A DNA stretch of 24,830 bases. Origin: Nitrosarchaeum sp. (lineage in GTDB: Archaea > Thermoproteota > Nitrososphaeria > Nitrososphaerales > Nitrosopumilaceae). Location: the NCBI GenBank assembly GCA_018334095.1, contig JAGXTE010000001.1:30001-54830 (forward strand), given 5' to 3'. Position numbers and translations under genes: made by a program. Below the pieces are notes generated by a model that made no database searches, had not been told where the DNA came from, and saw only the letters and a list, made by a program, of their open reading frames with translations. This document shows positions 7,872-24,830 of the stretch, in pieces; positions within the stretch are counted from its first letter, which is position 1; each line of letters starts with the position of its first letter.

Positions 7872-7944
7872 AACAGTTTTTCCAAAGTTTGACACTAGAA
7901 TAATCATTTAGAATATTTATTAACACAAATTCACAATATACCAC

Positions 7945-8349: not shown

Positions 8350-8441
8350 ACGGTCATTAACCTTCATTGTTAATATTTAAACTGGGTGCTGTTTTTTTCA
8401 AAAAAATCTAGGATTTAATCAGTGCTTCAAAGTAAATCTAG

Positions 8442-9773
8442 TTGCAAATAGAACATTTGCTTTTAACACTTGTACTTTCCCTAGCGGTAGCTCGAATATT
8501 AGGTGAATTATTCCGCCGGATGAAACAACCCTCCCTTGTTGGAGAATTGTTGGCAGGAGTGATTTTAGGACCATCGCTTTTGGCAATTCTTTCACCTGAT
8601 GATTCCATGACAATTCTTGCAAATGTTGCAGTGTTTTTCTTGATATTCATGGCGGGTCTAGAATTGAATCTCAGCGAGATTCGAAAATCAACTAAACCCG
8701 CATTTTTACTTGCCATTGTAGGATTTACCATCCCATTTGTATCTGGATATTATACCAGTCTGTTTTTTGGTCTAGGACAAATACAATCACTTTTTGTGGG
8801 TTTGCTATTATCAATTACAGCAATTCCAGTGAGCTCGATGATACTTATGGAATTTGGAATCTTGAAGAGCAAAATTGGAACAACTGTGATTACTGCAGCA
8901 CTAATCAATGACATCATGGCAATGATCGTATTTTCATTAATTCTGATTTACCCAACAGGCACACAGACTTCATTTGATTATTATGAAGTTGGATTAATGG
9001 GTGCAAAAATTACTATCTTTTTTGCAGTACTTGCAGCCGTAGTTTTTGTCATGAAAAAGACCAACATTACTTCTCAGAGAGTTGAGCCATTAGTTGAAAA
9101 ACTAAAAACAAAAGAAGCAAGCGTGGGAATTCTTTTATCACTTGGAATTTCGATTGCCTTGTTTGCACATTACTTTAATCTTCATTTTATTATTGGTGCA
9201 TTTTTTGCCGGATTAATTTTCGGCAGTAAGTTTTGGGGAGAAAAGATACACAATCATAATTCTAAATTAATCTCTGGAATTACGTTTGGCTTTTTTGCGC
9301 CTCTTTTCTTTGTTTTCATAGGTTTAGAGTTTGATCTTATGTCACTGACAAATTCCGCACCACTCTTTCTGGCGTTATTTTTTGTGGCAGTAGCATCAAA
9401 AATTGTAGGTGGATTTCTTGCAGCAAGAATTACAAGATTTTCAAATCATGAAAGCGTAGCCATAGGTTGTCTTATGAATGGACGGGGGATGGTAGAGATG
9501 GCTATTGCGTCAATTGGATACTCATTAGGATTAATTGATACGACATTGTTTTCAGTTGTAATCGCAATAGGCTTTCTTACCACAATAATTACTCCTGTAA
9601 TTGCTAAACCGTTTATCTACAAAACAATATCTAAACGAGTACAGGATTCAGAAATAAAACAAATGTCGGAATCAAAGAGAAATTTCTTATCTCACCACAT
9701 AACTTATCGTAAATTTCATGATCTTATAGATAAAACATATTTTGAAAAATTTTTAGGTCATAAAACAAACTGA
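8442..9773 (+). CDS. cation:proton antiporter (CPA2 / Na+/H+ exchanger family)
   Basis: 443-aa polytopic membrane protein. The N-terminus LAVARILGELFRRMKQPSLVGELLAGVILGPS is characteristic of Kef/NapA-type exchangers. The start is TTG. Confidence 0.85.
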   Translation: MQIEHLLLTLVLSLAVARILGELFRRMKQPSLVGELLAGVILGPSLLAILSPDDSMTILANVAVFFLIFMAGLELNLSEIRKSTKPAFLLAIVGFTIPFVSGYYTSLFFGLGQIQSLFVGLLLSITAIPVSSMILMEFGILKSKIGTTVITAALINDIMAMIVFSLILIYPTGTQTSFDYYEVGLMGAKITIFFAVLAAVVFVMKKTNITSQRVEPLVEKLKTKEASVGILLSLGISIALFAHYFNLHFIIGAFFAGLIFGSKFWGEKIHNHNSKLISGITFGFFAPLFFVFIGLEFDLMSLTNSAPLFLALFFVAVASKIVGGFLAARITRFSNHESVAIGCLMNGRGMVEMAIASIGYSLGLIDTTLFSVVIAIGFLTTIITPVIAKPFIYKTISKRVQDSEIKQMSESKRNFLSHHITYRKFHDLIDKTYFEKFLGHKTN

Positions 9774-9848
9774 ACTTGAAATTTTATTTTCTTTTTTTAA
9801 ATGAAATGATCTTAGCAAAAAGATGTACGTCATGATATTTCTAAATTT

Positions 9849-10334
9849 TTAATCAGAATCCAACGGTTGAGTATAATCGTCTTCAGCATTTGCACCTTCA
9901 GATTTTTTTCCATTTCTTCGTGAAATTTTTTGAAAATGAGGAATACGTGGAGTAAGTGCACATACCACAATTCCAATAATTGCAAGAAAGTAATATTCAA
10001 ATCCAATAGCCATACCAATGGAGGCTGCAAACCATATGCTTGCAGCTGTTGTGAGATTGTAGATGTCTCTTCCTCCTTTTATTATCATGCCTGCCCCCAA
10101 AAATCCTATTCCACCAACAACATATGCTGCAATTCTTGTTGTGGATGCAGGATCAACCTGTGAGGACAAAAATGTGAATACCATTGAACCGCATATGACA
10201 AGAGTGTGAGTGCTTATCCCAGCTGGTTTGCCACGACTTTCTCTTTCAATGCCTATTATTATACCTGCAAGCAATGAAAAACCAAAACCAATTAAAATTC
10301 GAATCTCCGTTTCGGTGATAAAATCTTGAATCAA
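9849..10334 (-). CDS. MgtC/SapB family membrane protein
   Basis: LLAGIIIGIERESRGKPAGISTHTLVICGSMVFTFLS matches the MgtC family signature region. The start is TTG. Confidence 0.8.
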   Translation of the reverse strand: MIQDFITETEIRILIGFGFSLLAGIIIGIERESRGKPAGISTHTLVICGSMVFTFLSSQVDPASTTRIAAYVVGGIGFLGAGMIIKGGRDIYNLTTAASIWFAASIGMAIGFEYYFLAIIGIVVCALTPRIPHFQKISRRNGKKSEGANAEDDYTQPLDSD

Positions 10335-10629
10335 CTATTTCCGATTCGGATTGATTGAGCATAAAAAATTTACGGAATTTAAATTGTTACAGTGGATATT
10401 AAAAAAGTTTTAGATGTTGACATTAGTTTGCTATGGCATTTCCATTAAACAATTTTTTAATTTACATAAAGTATGTTCAAGATTAACTGAAAATACGAGA
10501 TAATTAAAGTTGATCTTGTGTATATTATAAAATATTACAGCAATCACGATATGCATCGATTAGAAACTATTTTTGATTCTGACTTTTCATAAATCCTTAA
10601 TTTCTATTAGATGTCATAAATAAATTTGA

Positions 10630-11040
10630 ATGAAAAAGATAAAGAATTTATGCAAAATAATGAATTTAAAATCATCTATGAAAGAAATAACTCCAAATGA
10701 CATACTAAAAGATCATACTCCAAATGTCAAAAACCTGGTAAAACAATTGCGTAAATTCATTTTAAATACGATCCCAGAAGTTTATGAAAAGGCATTACCC
10801 GGATGGCATGCAATTGGATTTAGACATCCAGAGGGAGGACATTTTTGTGCAATATTCCCATTCAAAGATTCGGTAAAACTTTATTTTGAATATGGAGTAC
10901 ATCTAAAAGATCCTCATAGAGTATTAGAAGGAAATACAAAACAAGTGCGTTACATTACATTTAAAAAAATTACAGATATTCAAGAGATAATTCTAAAAAG
11001 CCTTGTTCAACAATCAATACTCCATCTTAGTAGAAAATAA
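10630..11040 (+). CDS. DUF1801 (YdhG-like) domain protein
   Basis: Matches the pattern ..LVKQLRKFILNTIPEVYEKALPGWHAIGFRHPEGGHFCAIFPFKDSVKLYFEYG... The start may be an internal Met (MKEITPND). Confidence 0.55.
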   Translation: MKKIKNLCKIMNLKSSMKEITPNDILKDHTPNVKNLVKQLRKFILNTIPEVYEKALPGWHAIGFRHPEGGHFCAIFPFKDSVKLYFEYGVHLKDPHRVLEGNTKQVRYITFKKITDIQEIILKSLVQQSILHLSRK

Positions 11041-11068
11041 CACATCTTCAACACTCCAATTCATATCC

Positions 11069-11119
11069 ATCATTGTGTACCGTCTATTTTCTTGCCTAAA
11101 GGAGGGGCTTTGCCTTTTT
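11069..11119. repeat. degenerate copy of the casposon right TIR (footprint of an earlier insertion)
   Basis: atcattgtgtaccgtctattttcttgcctaaaggaggggctttgccttttt aligns with the right TIR atcatctagttacctgtctaaatccacacctaaaaagggggcattctattttt at roughly two-thirds identity. Shared blocks are atcat, acc-gtcta, cctaaa, ggggc and ttttt. It abuts the left TSD copy in the same way the real right TIR abuts the right copy. Confidence 0.6.
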
Positions 11120-11132
11120 ATTCTCTATCGAT
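11118..11132. repeat. target-site duplication, left copy (ttattctctatcgat)
   Basis: Exact 15-bp match to 22831-22845. Identity extends to 18 bp (11115-11132 = 22828-22845) because both are preceded by ttt, so the TSD/TIR boundary is ambiguous and the TSD is 13-15 bp. Confidence 0.85.
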
Positions 11133-11185
11133 AAAAATAGAATGCCCCTCTTTTGGGCGTGATTTTAGACATGTAACTAGATGAT
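11133..11185. repeat. casposon left terminal inverted repeat
   Basis: The reverse complement of aaaaatagaatgcccctcttttgggcgtgattttagacatgtaactagatgat matches 22780-22832 at 46/53 positions. Confidence 0.85.
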
Positions 11186-11244
11186 ATGAAAAAGTATGAT
11201 TTGTTGGAAATATCTTAAGTAACCTTGAATATTATCTCAAATAA

Positions 11245-11814
11245 TTGTTATCTGAAATTTATTTTAAAGAATTTCTGAAAAACCCATTTTTTTGGTGGAG
11301 TGCTTTCATAGGAATTATAACAACTTGGATTTCATTTGAACCATTTTTTAGAATTGTTGAAGCAATTTTGTTAGAACAACTGTATGTTCCAATCTTGTAT
11401 GGATGTGTAGGATTATCTCTCTATCTAATGATTTATCCAATAAAGAGCAGATTGAGAAACCTGAAACTTCAGAAAGAAACTAAAAAAGAATTTCTTGTTT
11501 ATACATTTATGATAGTAGCAATAATTACAAATACCGTATACTTTTCATCAGATCCAGCTTTTATGTTAACAAAGGCACAGAGTCAAATTGTATCTGATAA
11601 AGTAATTTTAGAAGAAGTGGGGGACCTAAAATTATGGGCAGAATATCTTGTGTTGCCTTTTCTTTATGCAATCATGTTAGCACAGAGTAGAAAACTCTTG
11701 TATGGAAATGAAGAAATGAAATTTGACAATATCGAAAGTAGCTGGAAAATATCTATTATCATTACAATACTTGTAGGCGGTGCATATCTTTTGTTTAAAT
11801 TAGTGTCTGGATGA
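11245..11814 (+). CDS. polytopic membrane protein (hypothetical), immediately upstream of cas1
   Basis: 189 aa with a TTG start and four to five hydrophobic helices. Its stop at 11812-11814 lies 1 nt before the Cas1 TTG start, so co-transcription is likely. Confidence 0.5.
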   Translation: MLSEIYFKEFLKNPFFWWSAFIGIITTWISFEPFFRIVEAILLEQLYVPILYGCVGLSLYLMIYPIKSRLRNLKLQKETKKEFLVYTFMIVAIITNTVYFSSDPAFMLTKAQSQIVSDKVILEEVGDLKLWAEYLVLPFLYAIMLAQSRKLLYGNEEMKFDNIESSWKISIIITILVGGAYLLFKLVSG

Positions 11815-11815
11815 T

Positions 11816-12886
11816 TTGACGCTTAAAGGCCATTCAAACCATTACAACATAAAATTCCTCAAAGGATACGGTCATTCCATATCTGTTAAAGATTCAAAGA
11901 TAATCCTCAAAGATTGTCATGATCCTTTCACTCCTCCAAACATTGAATCATGGTACATCAAAAGTATGCCATATGAAAAAATTGTTTTGCAAGGAAAAGG
12001 ATACATCTCGACTGATGCTTTAGCCTTACTTTCTGAGAATAATCGAAATGTCATTTTATTAGATAATCATGGAAAACCTGTAACCTATCTAAATCCGGTA
12101 ATGGAGTCTCTAACTGCAACTAGAAACAGAATTGCTCAATACGATACATTTCGTAATCCGGAGAAATGCCAATTTTTACAGAGACAAATTGTAAAGTCAA
12201 AACTAGAATCTCAAATTAAATTCCTCAAACTAACTGAGCGAGAGGAAATAAAAGAAGCCATAGAAAAACTAGAAACTCATTTGACTAATCTAGATCATTT
12301 CACTTCAATTAGTAACGAATCAAAGACATCTCATATCTACTTTAGAGCATTTGCAAAAATAATTCCAGAGAGATATGAGTTTCATTCTAGAAACCCATCG
12401 TATGTAGGATTGGCAAAAAACAAAGCTACTGATATTATCAATGCATTACTAAACTATGGTTATGCAGTACTAGGTGGAGAAATTTCCAAGTTTATCAACG
12501 GATTTGGGCTTGATGCATACTATGGATTTTATCATAAATCTCACACTGGTTTTCAGCCTCTAGTTTATGACATGATGGAACCATTTAGGTGGCTAGTCGA
12601 TTATACCGTATTTCGAATTGCAAACATCAAAGACCACAAGCAGAGAATTAGGCTTGATGAATTTACTCATACTAGAGACGGAATTATAGTAATGGAGTAT
12701 AATTTGATCAGGAAATTTCTAGAGTTACTTGAAAGAACATTCCAGTCTGAAAGAAGATATGGGTTTAGACATGGTGCAAAAACAAAAGATGGGTTGAAAA
12801 ATGTTCAAGAGATTACGATTGCAAAGATTACAGTTCAAAATTTAGTAGAGTATTGTTTAGGAAAACAAAAAGACTTTAGAATCTAA
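11816..12886 (+). CDS. cas1: Cas1-family integrase (casposase)
   Basis: Cas1 signature blocks are NESKTSHIYF (E168), INALLNYGYAVL, DAYYGFYH (H240) and LVYDMMEPFRWLVD (D252/E255). The N-terminal beta-rich region (YNIKFLKGYGHSISVKDSKIILKD) is typical of Cas1. The start is TTG. Confidence 0.9.
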   Translation: MTLKGHSNHYNIKFLKGYGHSISVKDSKIILKDCHDPFTPPNIESWYIKSMPYEKIVLQGKGYISTDALALLSENNRNVILLDNHGKPVTYLNPVMESLTATRNRIAQYDTFRNPEKCQFLQRQIVKSKLESQIKFLKLTEREEIKEAIEKLETHLTNLDHFTSISNESKTSHIYFRAFAKIIPERYEFHSRNPSYVGLAKNKATDIINALLNYGYAVLGGEISKFINGFGLDAYYGFYHKSHTGFQPLVYDMMEPFRWLVDYTVFRIANIKDHKQRIRLDEFTHTRDGIIVMEYNLIRKFLELLERTFQSERRYGFRHGAKTKDGLKNVQEITIAKITVQNLVEYCLGKQKDFRI

Positions 12887-13212
12887 GGATTTACTTCTAT
12901 CTCTTGTTGTTCCCAGTATTTCATTAAATCCCAATTGGCATCTTTAATGTTGTCCTGATATTTTGATCTTTCTTTCCAATCTTCTACTGTTGAAGCACAT
13001 TTATTTTTTAGAAATGTTTCAATAATCTCTTTACCTTCTTCAGTTGTCATTGAATCACTATAGGTTTTATCGCCCCATTTATCGTATTGTTTAGCACAAT
13101 CAAAAGTTAGAGTACTTACAATTTCATTACTATTGTTGGAGACAAATTGAATAGACAATACTGCAATCACAGAGCAAACAACTGCTATTGCTATAATCAC
13201 AACAGGTTTCAT
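12883..13212 (-). CDS. small signal-anchored/secreted protein (hypothetical)
   Basis: 109 aa with an N-terminal hydrophobic helix (MKPVVIIAIAVVCSVIAVLSI). It makes a 4-nt convergent overlap with the cas1 stop. Confidence 0.45.
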   Translation of the reverse strand: MKPVVIIAIAVVCSVIAVLSIQFVSNNSNEIVSTLTFDCAKQYDKWGDKTYSDSMTTEEGKEIIETFLKNKCASTVEDWKERSKYQDNIKDANWDLMKYWEQQEIEVNP

Positions 13213-13245
13213 TATTTTTTCAAGGTATCTTGTTCAAATAAGGAT

Positions 13246-13581
13246 TTAGTAATGTGACCTTCTTGTGTCATTAGAATCATGTGTCCAGTGATTGTGATTT
13301 CTGCCACAGTTTGTACACATGCAACAGTTACAATGTTCTTTTGCCATGTTTTTTAATCCATCCCATAGTTTTTTTTGTAAAATCATTGCCATTCCAATTA
13401 CAATTAGACCAATAACAACTGGAAGGGTTTGAGAATTTGGATATTTTAAATCATATAATGAAATGATAAACCCAATCGCTACTAATATTATTCCAACAAA
13501 CTGGATTTTTGTCTTTAATTTTATCTTTTTTTTGTATTGATTATTTTTATTATGGCTTCTTTTTCTACGCCCAAAACCCAT
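13246..13581 (-). CDS. small membrane protein with Cys/His-rich C-terminal tail (hypothetical)
   Basis: 111 aa with a basic N-terminus, two TM helices, and the tail HCNCCMCTNCGRNHNHWTH. Confidence 0.45.
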   Translation of the reverse strand: MGFGRRKRSHNKNNQYKKKIKLKTKIQFVGIILVAIGFIISLYDLKYPNSQTLPVVIGLIVIGMAMILQKKLWDGLKNMAKEHCNCCMCTNCGRNHNHWTHDSNDTRRSHY

Positions 13582-13618
13582 GATTTTGTAAATATTTTAT
13601 GAACTTAAAATTTTTTGT

Positions 13619-13933
13619 TTGAGAAATCTATTTGATATAGTAACTCATAGTAAATTCATGCCTACTTTCAGTGATTTTGATGCAAATAAAAGACATGAAG
13701 AATCTTTACAAAATGACAAAATTTTGAAAGATGGTCTAGCCGAACTACTTTCAAAAATACAAGATTTAACAGATAAATTAGATAAATATGAGACTCGAAA
13801 TTCTGAATATCTTAGAAAATTACTTTTGATGGTTTCGGAGTTATTTCAGCAAGGCAAAATCAATATCGATACATTTAATCGATTAGATGAATTTCTTCAT
13901 GACTGGCTTGATGAAAGTCTAGATTCTAAATAG
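13619..13933 (+). CDS. hypothetical helical protein
   Basis: 104-aa ORF with a TTG start (alternative Met at MPTFSDFD). No family recognised. Confidence 0.4.
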   Translation: MRNLFDIVTHSKFMPTFSDFDANKRHEESLQNDKILKDGLAELLSKIQDLTDKLDKYETRNSEYLRKLLLMVSELFQQGKINIDTFNRLDEFLHDWLDESLDSK

Positions 13934-14059
13934 AATATTAGTTGGTAATTAATAAAAATAATTATTTTAAAAATGTGATTATTTATTGGAATGAATATTT
14001 TGAATCTTATGATGTTTTAAATAATTAAAAATATAAAATAAAATTTTGAAAAAAATGAA

Positions 14060-14797
14060 TTAGTGTTTTTGTTTATATTTTTTTATTGGTTTTATAAAAT
14101 CATCAACAAACATTTCTAACATTTTTGGATCAAGTCGAAAGGATTCAGCAAATAATCGTGCAAACACCAACCCTCCAAGTAAATCAAACGAGGATGACCC
14201 TTTATCACTTAGTGAATCTAAAACTTGTTTCTTATATTTAGTAATTTGTTTAGTCATAGTAGTAAGTTTACGCTTACCGGAAACCCTACTGACCATCATC
14301 GACTGCATTTCATATATTGAAATCCAATGCAAAAACTTCATTACTTCTTCTACTTTTGTTGAATCATCTGCATCAGAAGATATTGTTTTCAAAATTCCTG
14401 TGGTGCCTATTTTGATATTTTCCATTGTTTCTATAAACTCCTCAACTTGTTCATCAGACATAGTTGTAATTTTTGAATTTATAGTGTAAATTGTGTTGTT
14501 TCTTGCAATGACGTGTTTTATCACGATTTTATTTTGGACTAATTCATCTAATATTTCTCGAAAAATTCGTTCAGAACAAACCTTTTTGTCAATCACGATT
14601 ATTCTTTCTAATTCTCCATATCGAATGCTGTCGGTATTTTTTAACACCGTATTGATTTCATCTCGTGCCTGATTTCGTATTGTACCGTATTGCATATACT
14701 GTACCGTATAATTTCTACCGTTATAACTATTGCAATAACGTAAAGTTGGCATGAAATGTGGGAAGATTGGTAGAACATCTACCAAAAAACAAACCAA
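14060..14797 (-). CDS. putative winged-helix transcription regulator
   Basis: The wHTH-like segment is INTVLKNTDSIRYGELERIIVIDKKVCSERIFREILDELVQNKIVIKHVIARNNTIYTI. The real start is probably ATG 14695 (MQYGTIRNQ...), because the longer ORF would overlap the divergent gene at 14751. Confidence 0.55.
   Translation of the reverse strand: MVCFLVDVLPIFPHFMPTLRYCNSYNGRNYTVQYMQYGTIRNQARDEINTVLKNTDSIRYGELERIIVIDKKVCSERIFREILDELVQNKIVIKHVIARNNTIYTINSKITTMSDEQVEEFIETMENIKIGTTGILKTISSDADDSTKVEEVMKFLHWISIYEMQSMMVSRVSGKRKLTTMTKQITKYKKQVLDSLSDKGSSSFDLLGGLVFARLFAESFRLDPKMLEMFVDDFIKPIKKYKQKH
14646..14725. promoter_or_regulatory. cluster of accgtat direct repeats at a divergent promoter (operator-like)
   Basis: accgtatt at 14646 and 14684, accgtata at 14703, accgttata at 14717. 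A perfect 10-mer tgtaccgtat occurs at 14681-14690 and 14700-14709, 19 bp apart. The two copies fall in different reading frames of the minus-strand ORF, so this is a DNA-level repeat. Confidence 0.45.
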
Positions 14798-14996
14798 ACT
14801 CAGTCATTCAGATGCAGTTTCAACTGATTTTGGAGTAAGGAAGATCAGCAATCAAAATTTTTCCAAAGTGATTGCACTTCCAAAAACTGCAATAGAAAAT
14901 CTTGGTGGAGATTCAACTGAAATGAAAGTTGAACTAATACAAGAAAATGGAGAAAAATTCATCAAACTTTCTCCAATTAGAGGTGATAATTTTTGA
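14751..14996 (+). CDS. AbrB/SpoVT (MazE-like) DNA-binding domain protein
   Basis: VRKISNQNFSKVIALPKTAIENLGGDSTEMKVELIQENGEKFIKLSPI resembles the SpoVT-AbrB looped-hinge-helix domain. Confidence 0.55.
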   Translation: MKCGKIGRTSTKKQTKLSHSDAVSTDFGVRKISNQNFSKVIALPKTAIENLGGDSTEMKVELIQENGEKFIKLSPIRGDNF

Positions 14997-15328
14997 GTAC
15001 AACGCAAATACCATACATTTGCTGGGGAGAATACAAATCCAAAGACCAAAACAACCCAGATAGATTAGATATCGAAGTAACTAGTTTAGAGCAGTTTGAA
15101 AGTGAACTAACAACAAATGTTCATGTCAAACAAAAGATTCAAGGAGAATGTCAAGAAAGAATTCTACCGTTAAAGTCTCATGAATCGCCAAACAATTCAT
15201 TGTTAAAACAATGGAATGATCTAGTCAAAAGAAAACGAATCATAGTCGGAAGCAAACTGGTGATTCACACATATCTTGGAATTTCAAAGCATGGTAGAAC
15301 AATTCGAAAATTCCATGTAGAGGTTTAA
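14993..15328 (+). CDS. hypothetical protein
   Basis: 111-aa ORF with a TTG start. It overlaps the previous stop by 4 nt, which suggests operon-style coupling. Confidence 0.45.
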   Translation: MSTTQIPYICWGEYKSKDQNNPDRLDIEVTSLEQFESELTTNVHVKQKIQGECQERILPLKSHESPNNSLLKQWNDLVKRKRIIVGSKLVIHTYLGISKHGRTIRKFHVEV

Positions 15329-15347
15329 TCCTCTTTTTTCTTTTGAT

Positions 15348-15656
15348 ATGAGCGATAAAGATAAACTTCTAGAACAACTTGATGCCTTAAAATTATTTCC
15401 AAACAATAAACATGTAAAGGAACTACGAAAACAAATCAAATCAAAATTAGATAAATTGAAAAATAAAAAACCTAAAGAAAAAATACAAAAACAAACCAGA
15501 GCAGGCAAGTTAAGAAGATACCACAACTATATTAGACAAATTAGAAACAACTTTCCCAATCTATCATACAACCAGATTAGAAGTCAACTATCTCAAAGAA
15601 GACAAGGAAAACAGGTATCAATTCCTGATGTGATATGGCAGAATCCATCCCCGTAA
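15348..15656 (+). CDS. small highly basic protein (hypothetical; terminal-protein or DNA-binding candidate)
   Basis: 102 aa, K/R-rich, overlapping the pPolB start by 22 nt. Confidence 0.5.
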   Translation: MSDKDKLLEQLDALKLFPNNKHVKELRKQIKSKLDKLKNKKPKEKIQKQTRAGKLRRYHNYIRQIRNNFPNLSYNQIRSQLSQRRQGKQVSIPDVIWQNPSP

Positions 15657-17419
15657 CTGATTACAAGAATCTGGCCAAATTACGCACAAAAAGGCCACAA
15701 AACAGAGATTCTGCACAATCAAAGATTCGCAAAATCAATGCACTTGATACAGAAACCTACAATGGGGATATCTTTCTAATAGCAGACTCTGATGGTCTAT
15801 ATCTTGATGATATAACTTCAGATAATGTAATTCACTTTTTATTTTCAAAAAAATATCAAAATGCTTGGAATTTTTTTTATAATTTGCAATATGACGCTGA
15901 AGTGATACTAAAGTTATTGGGAAATGAACTATTTCGATACAAACAAACTGGAAAATTAGAATTCCTATACAAACAATTCAAAATAGAGTACATTCCATCA
16001 AAATTACTAAGAATAAAAAAAGGCCACCACAGCGTATTATTTTTTGATATTGCTCAGTTTTACACAAAATCATTAGTTGATGCATATGAGCAAAACATTG
16101 GAGAATTACCCAAGACATATTTGGAGATAAAAGAAAAACGCTCTCACTTTACAAAGCGATTTTACAATCACAACAAGAAAAAAATTAGAAGTTACTGTAT
16201 TACTGATTGTATTCTTACAAAGAAACTATCTGAGCACTGGATTGCACTGTTTAATCAAGCATTTTCGTTTTATCCTGCAAAATGGTCTTCATCAGGATAC
16301 TTGGCAGAAAAAGTACTAATCAACAATGGAATATTTTTTCCAAAATTTGATTCTATACCATACCAAATTCAGGATTTAGCGTTTAGATCATACTTTGGGG
16401 GAAGATTTGAAATGATAAAGCGGGGATTTATTGGCAAAGCGTACCTTTATGATATTAATTCAGCATATCCACATGCCATATCTCAACTCCCTGATCTAAA
16501 TGATGGTAGATGGATTAAACGAAAATCCATTTATGATAAAGCAAAACTTGGTTTCTTTAAGATTCTAGCAAACATCCCAGATGATAAAATCATCCCACCA
16601 TTTGCCTTTAGAGCAAATCATAACATTGTATTTCCATCTGGAAAATTCATTACATATTGCACATTGCCTGAACTTTTAGCCTGCAATGAGCCTAGTTTTT
16701 ACAAAATTTTGGAAGGATACCAGTTTGTGCCAAATTCTAATGTCTTACCATACAAAGATTTCATAGAAAAATTATATCAAAAACGTCTAAAACTAAAACA
16801 AGAAAACAATCCATTACAGCAACCAATCAAAATTATCTTAAATTCCATTTATGGCAAAACAGGACAAAAAATAAACAGAATAATTGGAAATTTATTTAAT
16901 CCCGTAATATTTGCAAGCATCACAGGACATACTAGAGCACAACTATACCAATTCATTATAAAAAACAATCTAGAAAAAAACACTATAGCATTTGCCACAG
17001 ATTCTATCTGCATAACAAAAAAACTTGACATCAACTCTACTAAACTTGGAGAGTTTTCATTTGATGGAAAAGCAAATGATGTTTTTTATTTACAAAATGG
17101 ATTTTATAGATTCAATGGAATGTGGAAGCAACGTGGATTTGGTAAACTAGGATCTAGAGAAATAGAACATCTAGATACTAAAGAAAAAAATGGCAAGCTA
17201 ATTGCAAAGATGCAAGTTTTACGAAACCCTAGATTACGAAGCTCAATAATTCAAAACAATATTAAAAATATTGGAAATATCTCTACAATTAGTAGAGAGA
17301 TTAATCTTAATGCTGATAGGAAAAGACTGTGGCTTGATACAATTACTAACATAAATCAAAAATCAGCTAATGAGTCAGTACCGATTTCTTTGAATCATTT
17401 TACTAAAGAGCAAATATGA
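15635..17419 (+). CDS. polB: protein-primed family B DNA polymerase (pPolB)
   Basis: Motifs are ExoI ALDTETY, ExoII NLQYDAEVI, ExoIII YCITDCILT, Pol A YLYDINSAYPHA, Pol B KIILNSIYGKTGQ and Pol C FATDSICI. The short 594-aa size is typical of protein-primed PolBs. Confidence 0.9.
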   Translation: MAESIPVTDYKNLAKLRTKRPQNRDSAQSKIRKINALDTETYNGDIFLIADSDGLYLDDITSDNVIHFLFSKKYQNAWNFFYNLQYDAEVILKLLGNELFRYKQTGKLEFLYKQFKIEYIPSKLLRIKKGHHSVLFFDIAQFYTKSLVDAYEQNIGELPKTYLEIKEKRSHFTKRFYNHNKKKIRSYCITDCILTKKLSEHWIALFNQAFSFYPAKWSSSGYLAEKVLINNGIFFPKFDSIPYQIQDLAFRSYFGGRFEMIKRGFIGKAYLYDINSAYPHAISQLPDLNDGRWIKRKSIYDKAKLGFFKILANIPDDKIIPPFAFRANHNIVFPSGKFITYCTLPELLACNEPSFYKILEGYQFVPNSNVLPYKDFIEKLYQKRLKLKQENNPLQQPIKIILNSIYGKTGQKINRIIGNLFNPVIFASITGHTRAQLYQFIIKNNLEKNTIAFATDSICITKKLDINSTKLGEFSFDGKANDVFYLQNGFYRFNGMWKQRGFGKLGSREIEHLDTKEKNGKLIAKMQVLRNPRLRSSIIQNNIKNIGNISTISREINLNADRKRLWLDTITNINQKSANESVPISLNHFTKEQI

Positions 17420-17634
17420 AAATAACGAAAATCATAAGATAATTATTTATCTGCACGAAATATGCGAGATTAAGCTTTTGAAGCAAATTACGCATGAATT
17501 TTGATGCTTTTATGGTATTTTCATGTACGAAAATAAAACAGTTATTCACGAGAGAGTTACGAAGAAGAGCTAATCTCGCAACCTGCGAATGAAACTTTCA
17601 TGAGTGAGAAATACGAAGAAGAGCTTTTGAAGTA
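17420..17634. other. 215-bp repeat-rich non-coding spacer between convergent genes
   Basis: The 14-mer tacgaagaagagct occurs at 17558-17571 and 17612-17625. The 11-mer agcttttgaag occurs at 17473-17483 and 17622-17632. An imperfect inverted repeat pairs tgcgagattaagct (17463-17476) with agctaatctcgca (17568-17580). acgaaa(a/t) motifs recur throughout. Confidence 0.5.
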
Positions 17635-18489
17635 TTATTGTAATGAAAAACCACACTTATTGCAAAATGAAGAATCTGTTGGATTAACATTTTTACATTG
17701 TGTGCAGATGGTTGTAAATTTATGCCCACATTTATTACAAAACTTTGCATCAATTGGATTAAAATTATTGCATGATGTACACTTGATTTCTTGCTCGCGT
17801 TTCTGTTTTTCATTATCTTGTTTTCTTAGTTTATCACTCCATTCTTTTTGGGTTTTGATTTGATATTTTACCAGTTTAGCCAATCCGTTCGGATCTGGTA
17901 CAGCATAAAACGTAAAAACAATTTCTCCTTCTGCCATAATATTTACATCGCCAAACGTTTGACTTTCACCAGTACTAAAACTACCTGAACTTCCTACAAA
18001 TGTTCCACTAGCACCAATTCCTGCAAATGTTCCCTCACGTTGAGATTCAGATATTCTTTTTTGATTATTGACTATAACATCAATGTTTTCAGATAATGCA
18101 TACATTGACATCTGATGTTCTTTTAAATCATAAAAATAACATCTGTATTCTGTTAAAGCGTCATACGCTCTTAGTGTTTTATTGACTAACCCTTCTTCTT
18201 TTTTGCGATACCATAAAACTTGTTCATTTTTACATTTTATTGGAAGAAATGGATTTACCCAAAAAGCTTCAATTCTTTTTGTGTCATCATTTTGAAATAA
18301 TACTGGATACTCGGATGTGATATTTTTTTCTTCTAATAATTGTCGACTTTTTTCGATAGATAGAGCCATGTCTCTCTTTGATTTTTCTGGAACCTCTGAA
18401 GCTGGAAGTAAAAATATATCTTCAAGTTCAAATTTTTCTTCATTTTTTTTAACTTCTATCTGCTTTTCTTTTTTACCAAATAATCCCAT
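17635..18489 (-). CDS. double-zinc-ribbon protein with uncharacterised N-terminal domain
   Basis: The C-terminus CTSCNNFNPIDAKFCNKCGHKFTTICTQCKNVNPTDSSFCNKCG is two tandem CxxC..CxxC ribbons. The N-terminal ~220 aa are unassigned. Confidence 0.65.
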   Translation of the reverse strand: MGLFGKKEKQIEVKKNEEKFELEDIFLLPASEVPEKSKRDMALSIEKSRQLLEEKNITSEYPVLFQNDDTKRIEAFWVNPFLPIKCKNEQVLWYRKKEEGLVNKTLRAYDALTEYRCYFYDLKEHQMSMYALSENIDVIVNNQKRISESQREGTFAGIGASGTFVGSSGSFSTGESQTFGDVNIMAEGEIVFTFYAVPDPNGLAKLVKYQIKTQKEWSDKLRKQDNEKQKREQEIKCTSCNNFNPIDAKFCNKCGHKFTTICTQCKNVNPTDSSFCNKCGFSLQ

Positions 18490-18607
18490 AAATTTGAGAA
18501 CATATACAAATTCTTAAGGATTTATTCATTTGTTATATTCATACTTCATTCGTACAAATTTTATGAATTTACGATAAACTAAAATTCATAATTTTTTATG
18601 AAACCAT

Positions 18608-19420
18608 ATGGGTTGGAAAAAACTTTTAGGTGATATTAAAGAAAAATCAGAAAAATTTGTTGAAGAAAAAAAGAAAGAGCGCAATTTAAGACGAATAGAA
18701 CAACAGGAACAAGCAGAACAAAGAGCAGAGTATGAGAATACTGTTAACAAATTACTGGATAAATTTGAAATTCCAGATCTTGATGAATTTTTAATGAAAT
18801 ATCTTAACAATAAACCAGAACCTAAAATAGAAAAAGACCCAGATATAGGAAAAATAACTAAGATACGACCAGGTAGACGAGAATATCTTGATTTTGTTTG
18901 GAGTAATTTTAATGAAAAAGATATCACATATGATCAACTAAAGAATTTTGCTTTAAAAAAGAAAATTATTACTCCAAGTTTCTTTGGAAACGAATCAGAT
19001 GACACTTATGAAAAAAGTGACTTTGAATCAATTATTAATGCAATTCGAGTTGGATTTGAACCTGAAAAAATTACAGATGAAGAACATCTTGAAGCACAAT
19101 TAATGATATTTTTGAAAGCAAAATTTCCAGACAGAAAAATAAGAAGGCAAGTTACAATTCAAGGAAATGACCGACTCGATATTTTAATTGATGATAAATA
19201 TGCCTTTGAACTTAAAGTCCCAAAACAAAGAACAGATTTAAGAAATCTAGGTGCTCAATTAGAAGAATACAAAGAAATGTATCCAAACGTATGTGGATTG
19301 ATCTTTGAAGATATCAATGAAGGAAATCTTTCACAAGATATCATGGATTATGTTGATAAATACAAAAAAAATTATGGGATATCTACAATAGTTTTAGGCG
19401 GTACCAAACGATATTCATAA
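18608..19420 (+). CDS. PD-(D/E)xK (RecB-like) nuclease-fold protein with charged N-terminal region
   Basis: Ordered motifs are EEHLEAQL (E), RLDILID (D), FELKV (ExK) and AQLEEY (QxxxY), the RecB-family/restriction-endonuclease-like pattern. There is no Cas4-type Cys cluster. Confidence 0.55.
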   Translation: MGWKKLLGDIKEKSEKFVEEKKKERNLRRIEQQEQAEQRAEYENTVNKLLDKFEIPDLDEFLMKYLNNKPEPKIEKDPDIGKITKIRPGRREYLDFVWSNFNEKDITYDQLKNFALKKKIITPSFFGNESDDTYEKSDFESIINAIRVGFEPEKITDEEHLEAQLMIFLKAKFPDRKIRRQVTIQGNDRLDILIDDKYAFELKVPKQRTDLRNLGAQLEEYKEMYPNVCGLIFEDINEGNLSQDIMDYVDKYKKNYGISTIVLGGTKRYS

Positions 19421-19485
19421 TAATACAACATCAGTTATTCTTTGAGAATTATTCTTGGTAAATTATAAGGATTTATGAAATTAAG

Positions 19486-19513
19486 ATTGTGTTTTTTTAA
19501 TCAAAAACACAAT
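19486..19513. promoter_or_regulatory. perfect 11-bp stem hairpin/palindrome (terminator or operator)
   Basis: attgtgttttt (19486-19496), a ttaatc loop, then aaaaacacaat (19503-19513), followed by acttttt. It lies 66 nt after the stop of 18608-19420 and 30 nt before the ATG at 19544. Confidence 0.5.
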
Positions 19514-19543
19514 ACTTTTTCAATAGAATCCCAATAATAGAGC

Positions 19544-20248
19544 ATGGCCATAATCTATGGCATTTCAGAGGCTACAAAAGAATTCCTAAAGAAATTACCA
19601 AAGGAAATCAAATCCCTTGAAGATATTGAAAAAATACATCAAAAATTATCCCAAGAGTATGATGAACTAGAAAACAAGGGATTAATTGCTAAATTTAGTC
19701 GTTGGAATAAAAAAAGACAAATAAAAAAAATTGAAGAAAATACTGACAGTAAAGAACACCGAGGTGCACGAGGTGAAGTTCTAGCATTAGAGAAACTATC
19801 AGAACTACCTGATGATTATCACATATTCTGTGGAGTAAACAAGGTACTCAAAGATTATGTCACCTATCGAAGAAAACGAAATCTAAAGTCAGCCCAGATG
19901 GACTTTGTCGTAGTATCAAAAAGGGGTGTATCAGTAATTGAGGTAAAAAACTGGAGTTCACATTATTACAATAATTACTATGGATTGCCACCACATGAAC
20001 AAGTAGACAGAGCAGGTCGTGTCTTGTGGATATCGCTAAAGTCTTCTTGGTTTGCACCAAAAGATCCACCAATTTCTAGTGTATTACTAGCAATTCAAGG
20101 AAATATCAACTATGATGATAATTATGGATATGTCATTGTAAAGAATCTAAACAATATCAATTACTATTTGCAAAATAGAGAAATACAGTTTTCTGAAAAA
20201 GAAGTATCTAGATTAATTGGTAGAGTCAAAGGAGACATAACAACATGA
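19544..20248 (+). CDS. NERD (nuclease-related domain) protein
   Basis: GARGEVLALEKLSELPDDYHIF...AQMDFVVVSKRGVSVIEVKNWS matches the NERD pattern G..GE...L...D.vvv...gv.viEvKn. Confidence 0.7.
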   Translation: MAIIYGISEATKEFLKKLPKEIKSLEDIEKIHQKLSQEYDELENKGLIAKFSRWNKKRQIKKIEENTDSKEHRGARGEVLALEKLSELPDDYHIFCGVNKVLKDYVTYRRKRNLKSAQMDFVVVSKRGVSVIEVKNWSSHYYNNYYGLPPHEQVDRAGRVLWISLKSSWFAPKDPPISSVLLAIQGNINYDDNYGYVIVKNLNNINYYLQNREIQFSEKEVSRLIGRVKGDITT

Positions 20249-20349
20249 TTGTTTTATAGTACATATAATTATTAACAAAGATATTTTGCATGTTAGATTA
20301 AATCATGTAAAAAATTAGAATTTTCAAACATATCAAATAATCAGTAATT

Positions 20350-21309
20350 TTGGTTAGAAAAATCATGTCTTCATTTCTTCTAAAAAAGAAATCTAAAAAA
20401 TCATTTTTAGAAGGAATTCAAATTTTAGAATATTCTACAAGAGAAAATTATCGGTCAGCACTTAAACAATTTGAAACATTTTGTAATTTTTATTATAATA
20501 AAACTATTCAATATATAATAGATGAAATAAAATCATTAAAACAAGAACAAAAAGATGAAGCGTTTCTTGGAATGTTGCAAGAATTTGTTAATTGGATGAA
20601 AAAAACAACATTGGCAAATACTACAATTCAAAAATACTTTCAAATTATTATTTATTATTTTAGCTATCATGGGATTAGAGCACATCCTATAGATCTACGA
20701 CAAAATATCAAACTCCCAAAAAAGTTTAAAGAAAAACTTCATTCATTAACCAAAGAAGAAATAATTCAATTATTCAAATTCACTCCTCAATCAAGACAAA
20801 TGTTGTATCTAGTATTGATTGGATCTGGTATGAGAATTAGAGAAACTGTAGCATTACGAAAAAAAGATTTTGATTTAGACTATCCAAAAAGAATCAAAAT
20901 AGAAATACCGGCTCAATTTACAAAGACAAAAACTGCACATACAACATATGTTTCAAAAGAGGCCGAATCTCTCCTAAAACCACACTTAGAATCCATAAAA
21001 AATAACGATTTAGTATTTGCAACAAATTCTATTCCATACCATGCATCTATGACTGAAATAGGGGCTTTTGCCAGATATAGAGAAAAAGCAGGATTGACTC
21101 GAATTTATGAATCAACTAAACGACATCATATATCACTTCATTCTTTTAGATCGTATTTTTTTATTCGTGCTAGACGAATACATGATACAGATATTGCTCA
21201 TGCAATGATAGGTCATTCTACGTATCTTGATATGTATGACAGAAAAGAAGACGATGAAAAATTAGACTTGTTTCTAGAAGTTGAAAATGAACTAAAAATT
21301 TGCGGATAA
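20350..21309 (+). CDS. tyrosine recombinase / phage-type integrase
   Basis: Catalytic pattern is GMRIRETVALRKKDF (R), SLHSFRSYF (HxxR) and IGHSTYLDMYDR (H...Y), with an N-terminal SAM-like core-binding region. The start is TTG 20350 or ATG 20365. Confidence 0.8.
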   Translation: MVRKIMSSFLLKKKSKKSFLEGIQILEYSTRENYRSALKQFETFCNFYYNKTIQYIIDEIKSLKQEQKDEAFLGMLQEFVNWMKKTTLANTTIQKYFQIIIYYFSYHGIRAHPIDLRQNIKLPKKFKEKLHSLTKEEIIQLFKFTPQSRQMLYLVLIGSGMRIRETVALRKKDFDLDYPKRIKIEIPAQFTKTKTAHTTYVSKEAESLLKPHLESIKNNDLVFATNSIPYHASMTEIGAFARYREKAGLTRIYESTKRHHISLHSFRSYFFIRARRIHDTDIAHAMIGHSTYLDMYDRKEDDEKLDLFLEVENELKICG

Positions 21310-21359
21310 GAACAATTGGTAGGATATTGTTTTTATTCATGTTTACTATGTGAGCCATA

Positions 21360-22778
21360 ATGTCAATGCTATTGTTTGGGGCAGGTGCGTCTAGACCGTT
21401 TGGGATTCCAACAATGCAAGAAATGGTAGATGATTTTGAAAGGGAATTATCTCAATCCACAATTCATTTTACATTTTACCAAGATATCAAAAAATCATTA
21501 GTAGAGCAATATGGACCAAATAAAACAGATATTGAATCAATTCTATCTGTACTCCAAGGGATTGGAGAAAATGTCACTCCAAGTGATTTAGGTCATTTCA
21601 CATATTATTATATTTCAAAAAATTGTTCAAAAAAGAGTTTTTCTGAAGAGGATATAACTAAAGCAAAAGAAATTACAATTAAACTAAAAGATTACATAAA
21701 AACAAAATGCCAGGTAAATTCAAAAGATCTTACAAGTATTTATTCAAAAACATATTTGCCATTATTCCAAAATTTAGCAGGAACAAAATTTCTCTATCAT
21801 GGAAATTTTGAACTTGCCACTGAATGGAAAAGTTTTACAACAAATTATGATGACATTTTTGAAAGATTTTGGAGTAAATTTCAGGAACCCAATAGTCATT
21901 TTGAGAGACAGGGAACTTCAAATAACTATATTTTCAATTCAAATATAACTTTAGACAATCAATCATTATCGAAACTTCATGGTTCACTTGATTGGACAAG
22001 AATTAAGGATACAGATCAAATATTTCGTTCTGCACAAACTGGATTTAATACTCATGAAACAGAAGGAGATGTCATGTTATATCCAATTCAACAAAAAGAT
22101 CTATACCTTCATCCATGGTTTACGTTATTTCAAGACTTCAAAAAAAGTTTAGAAAAATTCAATCAATGGTATATAATTGGTTATGCGTTTAACGATGAAT
22201 TTATTTTAAATGTTATAAAAGAAGGTTTAACAAAAAAATCAAAAACAATGATTGTAATTAATCCTAATGCTGAAGTAATCAGAAATAAATTTCCAGATGT
22301 GCTTAGAAAACAAATTATTGCTTTACCCTATAAATTTGGAGATCAGTATTTTGTCAATAATTTTATTGAATTTCAAAGGAAAGTCAGAAACATAGAATTA
22401 TCTATCCAAACAAACGCTCAATGTTTTAAAATTGAATTCCCATTTAAAGTACATACAGAATATGTGCATAAAATTGAACATGGGTCTTGCGCTAATGCCA
22501 CTGTATTGCCTAACAACCATCAAGTTTTTGAATACAATACAGAAAAAGGTTCAGAAATTTCAATAACATTAAATGCAGATTTTGACTTTGATTATACACG
22601 TATTGAAAATTTGGATTTTACATTTATTTCAAATTCTAAAACTCCTGTTAAATGTACTATAAAAAACCAAAAACGAATTATTGACACTTGTACTCTAAAT
22701 GATTGGACACGTTTAAAAACTGATGAAAATTTTTTGATTAGAGTTAGAAGTGTTAGCTCACGTAATTTTCTTATCTGA
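21360..22778 (+). CDS. SIR2-like (SIR2_2 family) putative NADase with uncharacterised ~130-aa C-terminal domain
   Basis: Motifs are LLFGAGASRPFGIPTMQEMV, FTTNYDDIFE, LSKLHGSLDW and YIIGYAFNDEFI, as in defence-associated SIR2 domains. The stop lies 1 nt before the right TIR. Confidence 0.7.
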   Translation: MSMLLFGAGASRPFGIPTMQEMVDDFERELSQSTIHFTFYQDIKKSLVEQYGPNKTDIESILSVLQGIGENVTPSDLGHFTYYYISKNCSKKSFSEEDITKAKEITIKLKDYIKTKCQVNSKDLTSIYSKTYLPLFQNLAGTKFLYHGNFELATEWKSFTTNYDDIFERFWSKFQEPNSHFERQGTSNNYIFNSNITLDNQSLSKLHGSLDWTRIKDTDQIFRSAQTGFNTHETEGDVMLYPIQQKDLYLHPWFTLFQDFKKSLEKFNQWYIIGYAFNDEFILNVIKEGLTKKSKTMIVINPNAEVIRNKFPDVLRKQIIALPYKFGDQYFVNNFIEFQRKVRNIELSIQTNAQCFKIEFPFKVHTEYVHKIEHGSCANATVLPNNHQVFEYNTEKGSEISITLNADFDFDYTRIENLDFTFISNSKTPVKCTIKNQKRIIDTCTLNDWTRLKTDENFLIRVRSVSSRNFLI

Positions 22779-22779
22779 A

Positions 22780-22832
22780 ATCATCTAGTTACCTGTCTAA
22801 ATCCACACCTAAAAAGGGGGCATTCTATTTTT
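22780..22832. repeat. casposon right terminal inverted repeat
   Basis: atcatctagttacctgtctaaatccacacctaaaaagggggcattctattttt is the inverted partner of 11133-11185 (46/53). Its last 2 nt are shared with the TSD as drawn. Confidence 0.85.
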
Positions 22833-22845
22833 ATTCTCTATCGAT
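22831..22845. repeat. target-site duplication, right copy = last 4 codons plus stop of EF-2
   Basis: The reverse complement of ttattctctatcgat is ATC GAT AGA GAA TAA, which reads I D R E stop and matches the EF-2 C-terminus ...EEYIDRE. Confidence 0.85.
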
Positions 22846-24830
22846 GTATTCTTCGATTCCAGGAGGTGTTGGTGCCAATCCTTTTCTCTTTCTGATTTCT
22901 GCAATTGCAGTTGCTGCAATAGATTTTGGCAGTTCAGTCCATGCCTTAAAGGATGTATTCCATGTTGCACGTCCTGCTGTTTGTCCTCTCATTGCTTCAG
23001 ATAGTGTAAATGTTTCAGATGCTGGAATTTCACCGACAATAATACTTGCAGCTCCTTTTTGTTGCATGTCAAGCACTTTGCCACGTTTGCCAGAAAGAAC
23101 GGTAGCTACGTTTCCTACCAAGTCAGTTGGAACTCGGACCTCAATTGCAAGCATTGGCTCCAAGATTGTAGTTCCTGCAGTTAGTAACGCTCCCATGCAT
23201 GCACGTCTAGATGCCGGTCCCAGTTGTGAAAGACCACGGTGTGCAGTATCCTCGTGAGGTACAAAGTGAGTAAAGATGAATTTGCAGTCCCTCATCTGCT
23301 CTTTGCAGAGTGGGCCTTCTTTCATTACTTCCTCAAATCCAGAGTTGATAGAGTCAGTTGACTCTTGAATAAATTGAACACCTTTTGTTCCGTTGATCAT
23401 TACGTTTCCACGTGGGTCTAGTTTCATGATTCTCTTAATTGTATCAGTATCCCATCCAGCGCCCTTTAGAAGGTCAGCTACAACTTTTTTGTCTTTCATG
23501 TCGCTGATTTCACCAGTTCTTAGCATGTGTGCGATTGCTGGCTCCAATGGCTCTACTTTCATGAAAATCTTGTTGTGTCTGTTTGGAGATTTTGACATGA
23601 TTGGCTCACATGTTCCTTTGACGGTTTCTCTGTAATTGATAAGAGGTTCAGATGTTATGATTTCTACTTTGGCGTCTTGAATTCTATGTGTTGCAACATC
23701 AAGGTGCAACACACCCATTCCAGCTACTAGTGTTTCGCCAGATTCTTCATCGATTTTTACTACAAGGTTAGGATCTTCAATTGTTAGTTGTTTGAGGACC
23801 TCGACAAGTTTTGGCAAGTCTTTTGGATGTTTTGGTTCTATTGCAACTTGCACGACAGGTTCTGATACATATTTGACTCCTTCAAACATTGGAATTCCTT
23901 TGACAGATGAAATTGTATTTCCTGCTCTAGCTTCAGTTAATCCTAATAATGCTGGAATGTTTCCTGCACCAAGCTCACCGACTTGTTCTCTTTGGTTTCC
24001 CATGAAAAAGTTTACAGATTGAACTCTTCCCTCTCTTTTTGCATCGATAATGTTTATTGTTTGTCCGTCCTTTATTGTTCCAGAGAATAATCTACCAATT
24101 GCAACAGGCCCTGCTGCAGGATCTAAGACCATGTTGACGACCATCATGATTGTTGGTCCGTCATCACTGCATGCCAAGAGTGCTTTACCAATATCAGATT
24201 CAAGGTCACCTTTCCAAATTTGAGGAATTCTGTACTTTTGAGCAACGTGTGGTGGTGGAACGTGTTTTACTACCATTCCCAACACTGCATCAGCCAAAGG
24301 AGCGCGTGCTACCAAATCTTCTACTTTTTCATTTTTGTAAGCATCAATGACATCTTTGAATGTAATGCCTTTTTCTTTCATGATATCTACGTTAAATGCC
24401 CATTTGTCTTTGGCAGAACCAAATGTGACGCTGGCATCTTGGATAGATACTTTCCATTTGTCTTTGTATTCAGGTTCAGCATAAGTGTCAACTAGTTGGT
24501 TAAAGCTAGACACTACACCTGCAAGTGTCTCTTGCATTTTTTCTGGTGTCAGACGTAATTCTTTGATTAGTCTGTCTACTTTGTTGATAAATAAAACTGG
24601 TCTTACTCTTTCTTCAAGGGCCATTCTTGTTACAGTCTCTGTCTGGGTCATGATTCCCTCGACTGCATCACATACTACAGTTGCGCCATCGATTGCCCTA
24701 AGACTTCGAATTACCCTTCCACTGAAATCTACGTGTCCGGGAGTATCAATCATGTTAATGACGAATTCTTTGTCTTTTTGTGTAAAGTGTAAAGTTACAT
24801 TTGCTTGGTAAATTGTAATTCCTCTTTCTT
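22831..24830 (-). CDS. fusA: translation elongation factor 2 (aEF-2), 5' end beyond window
   Basis: The track ORF starts at an internal Met, but the frame stays open upstream to the window edge (..ERGITIYQANVTLHFTQKDKEFVINMIDTPGHVDF..). It carries the G-domain DTPGH motif and the diphthamide-loop-like HEDTAHRGLSQ. Length and domain order are those of EF-2. Confidence 0.95.
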   Translation of the reverse strand, partial: ERGITIYQANVTLHFTQKDKEFVINMIDTPGHVDFSGRVIRSLRAIDGATVVCDAVEGIMTQTETVTRMALEERVRPVLFINKVDRLIKELRLTPEKMQETLAGVVSSFNQLVDTYAEPEYKDKWKVSIQDASVTFGSAKDKWAFNVDIMKEKGITFKDVIDAYKNEKVEDLVARAPLADAVLGMVVKHVPPPHVAQKYRIPQIWKGDLESDIGKALLACSDDGPTIMMVVNMVLDPAAGPVAIGRLFSGTIKDGQTINIIDAKREGRVQSVNFFMGNQREQVGELGAGNIPALLGLTEARAGNTISSVKGIPMFEGVKYVSEPVVQVAIEPKHPKDLPKLVEVLKQLTIEDPNLVVKIDEESGETLVAGMGVLHLDVATHRIQDAKVEIITSEPLINYRETVKGTCEPIMSKSPNRHNKIFMKVEPLEPAIAHMLRTGEISDMKDKKVVADLLKGAGWDTDTIKRIMKLDPRGNVMINGTKGVQFIQESTDSINSGFEEVMKEGPLCKEQMRDCKFIFTHFVPHEDTAHRGLSQLGPASRRACMGALLTAGTTILEPMLAIEVRVPTDLVGNVATVLSGKRGKVLDMQQKGAASIIVGEIPASETFTLSEAMRGQTAGRATWNTSFKAWTELPKSIAATAIAEIRKRKGLAPTPPGIEEYIDRE

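Follow-up and report, generated by a model that had tools for sequence, protein, structure and literature searches.

The analysed stretch of DNA (24,830 nt, hereafter the window) derives from a Nitrosopumilaceae genome of 69 contigs and 1.68 Mb and carries a family-1 casposon of 11.7 kb at about positions 11133–22832. Its TIRs of 55 nt lie at 11131..11185 on the plus strand and at 22780..22834 on the minus strand and are 87% complementary to each other; the motif at their tips, AAAATAGAATGCCCC, occurs only at the two casposon ends. An exact 18-bp TSD, TTTTTATTCTCTATCGAT, was found at 11115..11132 and 22828..22845, and its right copy overlaps or includes the EF-2 stop codon (gene at 22831–24753, minus strand). 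EF-2 is the published target of family-1 casposons (PMC6563490), and targeting of the EF-2 3′ end is also described in PMC8464041.

The core genes are all encoded on the plus strand. They comprise a Cas1 casposase without HTH (11816..12886; PF01867, E = 3.5e-49), which is 81–89% identical to casposases of the same genus, three small ORFs conserved in family 1 (14751..15656), whose homologues occur in identical order in six other casposons, and, downstream of these ORFs, the protein-primed PolB, pPolB (15635..17419; PF03175, E = 4.8e-23), with 46–79% identity to the pPolBs of other family-1 casposons. Both this gene set and the ends of the element, with TIRs and a TSD at the EF-2 3′ end, are those of a family-1 casposon, and the casposase with Cas1-type TIR/TSD ends that had been claimed in the initial annotation of this DNA was borne out. 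Judged from the TIRs, the TSD and the EF-2 target, Cas1 would mobilize the element as a whole.

An earlier casposon seems to have left a trace in this EF-2 site: directly to the left of the left TSD, positions 11082–11114 resemble the inner part of the right TIR in degenerate form (repeat family D4; 75% over 51 nt, with the TSD counted in). Casposon arrays, tandem or head-to-head, occupy the EF-2 site at loci L034 (G245:C3:4091-24090) and L057 (G260:C19); here, Cas1 and pPolB disagree in how similar they are to those of the window (e.g., 87% identity for Cas1 and 46% for pPolB), indicating modular recombination among casposons. A JGI contig, L039, was 100% identical to the window over the 14.5 kb compared and is therefore probably not an independent assembly.

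Cargo genes of the right arm

The right arm of the casposon has a length of 5.4 kb. The gene for a double zinc-ribbon protein (17635–18489, minus strand; Pfam DZR) opens its element-specific part (17635..19420), followed by the gene of a 270-aa protein (18608–19420, plus strand) that matches no Pfam family; neither protein has a homologue in any compared casposon. The remaining genes are on the plus strand: a NERD nuclease cassette (19466..20249, consisting of the gene at 19544–20248 and 78 bp upstream of it; PF08378, E = 1.4e-11), the tyrosine recombinase gene described below, and, as the last gene before the TIR, the gene of a SIR2_2 defence-type protein (21360..22778; PF13289, E = 2.2e-7; PADLOC Aga_SIR2, E = 7e-25). 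The closest homologue of the SIR2 protein is only 52% identical. All three inspected loci with SIR2 homologues belong to defence islands, and at the loci inspected SIR2 relatives were never seen beside the integrase clade of the window.

The same genome harbors a second family-1 casposon (G000:C57:9534-21113; reverse-complement coordinates 4015–15594), which targets the 3′ end of an NDH-2 (Pyr_redox_2) gene instead of EF-2 and has the TIR tips AAAAGAGACTGCCCC. The 784-bp NERD cassettes of the two elements (19466–20249 in the window) are 94% identical at the nucleotide level; the homology begins 78 bp before the NERD ATG and breaks off sharply with the NERD stop codon. Elsewhere, the matching parts of these casposons, including pPolB, reach ~70% overall, with short patches of 83–94%. 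The 94% identity of the cassettes implies a recent exchange between the two resident casposons. Beyond the NERD stop codon, the second casposon continues with unrelated genes and contains neither the integrase nor SIR2. NERD homologues in the casposons NitNF5-C1 (54% identity), G260:C19 (60%) and G003 (48%) mark NERD as a recurrent casposon passenger, and the comparison of the two resident elements indicates that integrase and SIR2 joined the arm separately from it. A palindrome in the NERD 5′ region, TTGTGTTTTT-TTAATC-AAAAACACAA at 19488–19513, is partly kept in the copy of the second casposon and possibly represents an operator or hairpin.

A search of 301 Nitrosopumilaceae genomes with the window casposase yielded Cas1 hits in 105 of them. 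The closest casposons by Cas1 identity were found in G245 (89% and 87%), G082 (88%), G134:C2 (81%), G112:C5 (81%) and G017 (70%). Where intact, these elements retain the core genes, and integrase, NERD and SIR2 are absent from all of the closest casposons compared (Cas1 identities of 70–89%); in G134:C2, no more than ~660 bp separate pPolB from EF-2. Therefore, the 5.4-kb right arm is specific to the window element. By this comparison the integrase is an accessory and not a core casposon gene, and the related casposons, which lack it, do not contradict the initial annotation.

The tyrosine recombinase and its relatives

The tyrosine recombinase gene (20365..21309, plus strand) encodes a protein of 314 aa when read from the ATG at 20365, from which all residues are numbered here. 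The initial annotation had placed the gene at 20350–21309, following a list in which the ORF starts at a TTG (20350); the gene is real, and because its homologues begin with MSSFLL or MQSFLL, the ATG is the likelier start. The protein matches PF00589 (E = 1.3e-10, residues 132–290) and has a SAM-like N-terminal domain (Pfam SAM_5-like). In alignment A1 of 37 sequences, R157, K187, R262, H284 and Y291 are invariant and H259 is nearly so (conserved in at least 90%). In the comparison with XerA, Arg I corresponds to the motif GLRVSE, and the catalytic R-K-H-R-H/W-Y set of the tyrosine recombinase superfamily is present. The AlphaFold2 model (pLDDT 91.1) has the two-domain fold of a core-binding and a catalytic domain and matches XerA, XerH, IntI4, Cre and lambda Int over the full length of the model (Foldseek probability 1.00, ~300 columns). 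The family match, the aligned catalytic residues and the fold confirm the intact recombinase ORF seen previously, and with it the presence of two unrelated integrases, a Cas1 casposase and a tyrosine recombinase, in one TIR/TSD-bounded element. Pairwise dN/dS ratios of 0.11–0.135 against three intact relatives indicate that the gene is under purifying selection. The gene encodes an intact, probably active XerA/XerC-like tyrosine recombinase.

The region upstream of the gene (20309..20364, plus strand), which is shared with the closest relatives of the integrase, contains AACATATCAAATAATCA, and nucleotide similarity to the homologue in genome G042 begins at 20309. Of 10 clade loci, 9 have an AACAT motif ~45 nt before the start, and the region is probably a promoter or control region.

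Several known classes of tyrosine recombinases were considered and rejected. For a XerA/XerC/XerD dimer resolvase, the scores were too low: the NCBIfam XerA model gave 60.9 bits against a cut-off of 220, and the XerC and XerD models gave ~29 and 27 bits against cut-offs of ~330. The low XerA score, together with the presence of close copies in only ~10 of 301 genomes, often as fragments, argues that the window integrase is not a housekeeping enzyme of dimer resolution. The integron integrase model TIGR02249 fell short as well (40.9 bits, cut-off 265), its match being confined to the N-terminal part, and no repeated imperfect palindromes of the attC type were found between the arm genes. A recombinase or invertase of a phase-variable type I R-M shufflon does not fit either, as the window contains no hsd genes and relatives adjoining type I R-M systems have a single hsdS. 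No PADLOC model matches the window integrase.

The integrase belongs to a short clade of ~314 aa, comprising >100 protein clusters with 57–80% identity to the window protein, among them proteins of N. maritimus, N. adriaticus, Nitrosotenuis cloacae and a Nitrososphaera sp. This clade is widespread in ammonia-oxidising archaea, its members occupying defence islands and cryptic integrated elements. The common Nitrosopumilaceae integrases of 350–400 aa are ~40% identical to it and have a C-terminal extension of ~50–80 aa that is missing from the short clade. Close copies (at least 59% identical) occur in only ~10 of the 301 family genomes; ~7 of the 11 close copies in this sample are fragments or contain stop codons, and one genome, G114, has three copies of the clade. 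In the tree, the window integrase and three further proteins form a subclade with 99% support. One of these, the closest homologue, from G042 (79% identical), belongs to an element with a D5-like primase and type I R-M, another lies in a type I R-M locus, and the third (77–78% identical) is directly preceded by a NERD gene, 45% identical to that of the window, on a contig without Cas1 or PolB. The nearest relatives, at 78–80% identity, reside outside casposons. The direct succession in the third locus suggests that NERD and integrase may form a linked pair, which counts against the passenger reading preferred below.

Other neighbors of clade members are type I R-M, DUF5343-HEPN, SLOG/PRTase, Fic and toxin-antitoxin genes, and two inspected clade loci have a second, longer integrase at the island edge. 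The nucleotide similarity between clade copies covers only the gene and ~55 nt upstream, and the neighbors differ everywhere. Two gene pairs were seen repeatedly beside the short clade (L027 in the N. maritimus-type genome G132, L043, L046 and L048), one consisting of DUF5343 and HEPN(Swt1)-like genes, the other of DprA/SLOG-like and PRTase genes; both pairs look like defence modules of islands in ammonia-oxidising archaea.

Origin and role of the integrase

With a probability of roughly 0.6, we interpret the integrase as a horizontally acquired passenger in the defence-cargo arm of the casposon, whose transposition is carried out by Cas1. The gene is intact, lies inside the TIRs and is absent from the sister casposons; its distribution is independent of those of NERD and SIR2, and its nearest relatives are found outside casposons. 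Three explanations had been offered in the initial annotation, namely captured cargo, a nested second element or its remnant, and a function in resolution or inversion, of which captured cargo fits these data best. The right arm would then be a mosaic of singly exchanged cassettes (zinc-ribbon, 270-aa protein, NERD, integrase and SIR2). An integrase-bearing island would have been the source of the integrase and perhaps also of the neighboring SIR2 gene. The integrase might have arrived through its own site-specific insertion, in which case the att sites decayed afterwards, or else through recombination between elements; it would have no part in the casposon transposition machinery. We rejected a joint transfer of NERD, integrase and SIR2 as a single moving unit, since the three genes are distributed independently and the NERD breakpoint coincides with its stop codon.

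If the integrase alone (~1.1 kb) or with SIR2 (~2.5 kb) were a still-mobile nested unit that had inserted itself into the arm, traces of its attachment sites might be found. The longest exact direct repeat in the right arm measures 14 nt (shuffled sequences: mean 13.5, maximum 18), and mismatch-tolerant searches of 17400–22830, the arm intergenic regions and the integrase flanks gave no direct repeats above chance. The intergenic regions of the arm have no significant direct or inverted repeats in common, and except for the NERD cassette the arm does not recur elsewhere in the genome. Unlike in NitNF5-C1, no piece of a TIR is duplicated inside the element, and the window lacks tRNA genes. The absence of a tRNA gene and of att-like repeats near the integrase had already been noted in the initial annotation, and this part stands. 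In flank-vs-flank alignments (300 shuffles), the NitNF5-C1 repeat used as positive control beat all shuffles, and flanking repeats were found at none of nine other clade loci. The best match for the window integrase was 25/32 between its upstream motif and a downstream segment (20314–20345 vs 21468–21499; p = 0.02, uncorrected for 11 tests), the latter sitting within the SIR2 coding sequence. Direct repeats that could serve as attL and attR of a block ending in the integrase were not found. At two decayed relatives with tRNA genes 0.9–2 kb away, a partial tRNA repeat was not found.

In favor of such a nested unit one may cite the XerC gene of NitNF5-C1, which is bracketed by a 22/23-nt repeat with its second copy in the TIR, the three copies in G114, the restriction of clade similarity to the gene plus ~55 nt amid varied neighbors, as would be expected if a single gene moved on its own, and the marginal 25/32 match. 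However, this match falls in the SIR2 coding sequence, no direct repeat around the integrase or the integrase–SIR2 pair rises above chance although the NF5 repeat was readily scored, an internal TIR copy and a tRNA gene are lacking in the window, and the score for the other clade loci is 0/9. We therefore consider a still-mobile unit rather unlikely, and the nested element or remnant proposed initially retains a correspondingly small place, without the att repeats that would support it.

Tyrosine recombinases also occur near a second Cas1 lineage (~410 aa; 64–65% mutual identity and 28–34% identity to the window and family-1 Cas1), which is frequent in Nitrosopumilaceae. We identified it at the loci L025 (G114:C18), L030 (G134:C15), L028 (G030:C1) and L054 (G008:C33). 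A PolB-like gene is paired with this Cas1 in three of the four loci (~900 aa in L025 and L030), that of L025 matching no Pfam family at E ≤ 0.001, and the cargo includes AAA_15/OLD-like ATPase, NERD and SIR2-like genes. A short-clade integrase is located 2.4–9 kb from the lineage-2 Cas1 in G114, G134 and G030, i.e., in three genera, and is intact in one element and a fragment in two. TIRs were looked for in these Cas1/PolB elements and none were found, and the integrase is noted here only as nearby. One of the copies lies 0.9 kb from a tRNA-Ser gene, so that a shared target could explain the adjacency of integrase and Cas1. Just past the 3′ end of the lineage-2 Cas1 gene, L030:13358-13588 contains about nine tandem copies of a 22-nt unit, TGGAATCATAATGAAATCATTC. 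Due to the lack of spacers this array is not a CRISPR; it may be an iteron-like site.

Such recurrence raises the question whether the integrase was recruited for a function, be it the exchange of defence cassettes in the manner of integrons or pipolins, the resolution of tandem arrays or a second route of integration. There are at least three cases of tyrosine recombinases within or next to Cas1-PolB elements (the window, NitNF5-C1, and lineage 2 in G114, G134 and G030), at least two of these acquisitions being independent. The arm mosaic of single cassettes with sharp breakpoints at gene ends and the purifying selection on the window gene are also consistent with recruitment, and pipolins are described (PMC11551731) as combining PolB, tyrosine recombinases and defence cargo. 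Against it, the sister casposons manage without an integrase, the lineage-2 copies are decayed fragments in two of three cases, the arm genes are not separated by repeated attC- or dif-like sites, the integron-integrase and XerA models remain far under their cut-offs, and tandem arrays without an integrase exist (L034, L057). We regard a recruited function as highly unlikely. For resolution or inversion, suggested in the initial annotation, we found no significant inverted or direct repeats as substrates. Moreover, a protein-primed linear replicon does not need dimer resolution. A role in resolution or inversion is left unsupported.

At the other extreme, the integrase could be an inert relic, recently stranded and heading toward decay. 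In favor of a relic, the clade copies found in genomes are mostly fragmentary or disrupted by stop codons, and recognizable att sites around the window integrase are missing; yet its reading frame is unbroken and has lost none of the catalytic residues, and the motif upstream of it is conserved as well. The dN/dS ratio does not settle this question because it averages over a history in other contexts. We consider an inert relic very improbable. Conversely, with the gene intact and a pairwise dN/dS of ~0.12, a function in the present setting should not be dismissed along with it.

The recurrence of tyrosine recombinases at Cas1 elements (three of lineage 2, and NitNF5-C1) hints at more than random capture. 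One explanation, which we put forward with considerable doubt, is that they are repeatedly recruited to the Cas1-PolB elements of ammonia-oxidising archaea, either because casposon ends and arms are preferred landing sites of tiny units consisting of an integrase only, or because the recombinase drives the exchange of defence-gene cassettes with defence islands. If cassette exchange were true, casposons would be integrase-assisted shuttles of defence genes, analogous to pipolins.

The preferred reading, an acquired passenger, leaves the model of casposon transposition unchanged. Together with NitNF5-C1, the window element shows that family-1 casposons can acquire tyrosine recombinases of unrelated lineages along with nuclease and NADase genes, which adds casposons to the vehicles of archaeal defence genes and bears on how their boundaries and "core" genes are annotated. 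According to reviews (PMC4046053; PMC9939771), Cas1 is the only recombinase that casposons carry.

Comparison with known systems

The closest precedent is the family-1 casposon NitNF5-C1 of Ca. Nitrosopumilus adriaticus NF5 (G201), for which a XerC-like tyrosine recombinase was already reported (Krupovic et al. 2019, PMC6563490) and whose coordinates in our data agree with the supplement of that study. The combination of a casposon with a tyrosine recombinase is therefore not new in kind, and the novelty implied in the initial annotation was overstated. Like the window element, NitNF5-C1 has Cas1 and pPolB, targets EF-2 and possesses a long right arm with nucleases, including NERD (54% identical), and a tyrosine recombinase near the right TIR. 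However, its XerC has 390 aa and no BLAST similarity to the window integrase, indicating independent acquisitions. It is also the terminal gene, whereas the window integrase is penultimate and followed by SIR2, and it is bracketed by a TIR-derived 22/23-nt repeat that has no counterpart around the window integrase. This repeat, ACTGTCATAATTT[C/T]ATTCGTAAA, was found at genome positions 1093518 and 1094991 (L051, G201:C1, 3519 and 4992); as its second copy is part of the TIR, the XerC gene of NitNF5-C1 forms a unit of 1.47 kb that contains the integrase alone and is nested in the end of the casposon. Both elements show a right arm that is rebuilt by cassettes. To the published picture, the present analysis adds that the two integrases originated independently, that the short integrases can be defined as a clade, and that the cassette breakpoint is sharp.

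The integrases of thaumarchaeal cryptic elements and defence islands (arCOG01242-type XerC/XerD, PMC6563490) share the fold superfamily and the catalytic set with the window integrase, and the surroundings of its relative in G042, with a D5-like primase and type I R-M, are typical of thaumarchaeal cryptic integrated elements. In contrast to the common thaumarchaeal integrases of 350–400 aa, the short clade has no C-terminal extension, and att repeats or tRNA targets were not seen at its loci, save for the tRNA genes 0.9–2 kb from two decayed copies. The archaeal XerA (P. abyssi 4A8E, 5HXY) and the bacterial XerC, XerD and XerH are the best structural and profile matches and have the same two-domain architecture; the window integrase differs from XerA in its NCBIfam score (60.9, under the cut-off of 220) and in the patchy distribution of its clade.

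Finally, pipolins (PMC11551731) resemble the window element as self-synthesizing, PolB-encoding elements with a tyrosine recombinase that serve as a reservoir of defence genes. We rejected an identification of the window element as a pipolin, given its PF03175 polymerase with 46–79% identity to casposon pPolBs and its TIR/TSD ends. Pipolins are moved by their tyrosine recombinase, are flanked by direct repeats and encode a primer-independent piPolB, whereas the window element has Cas1, TIRs, a TSD and a casposon-type pPolB.
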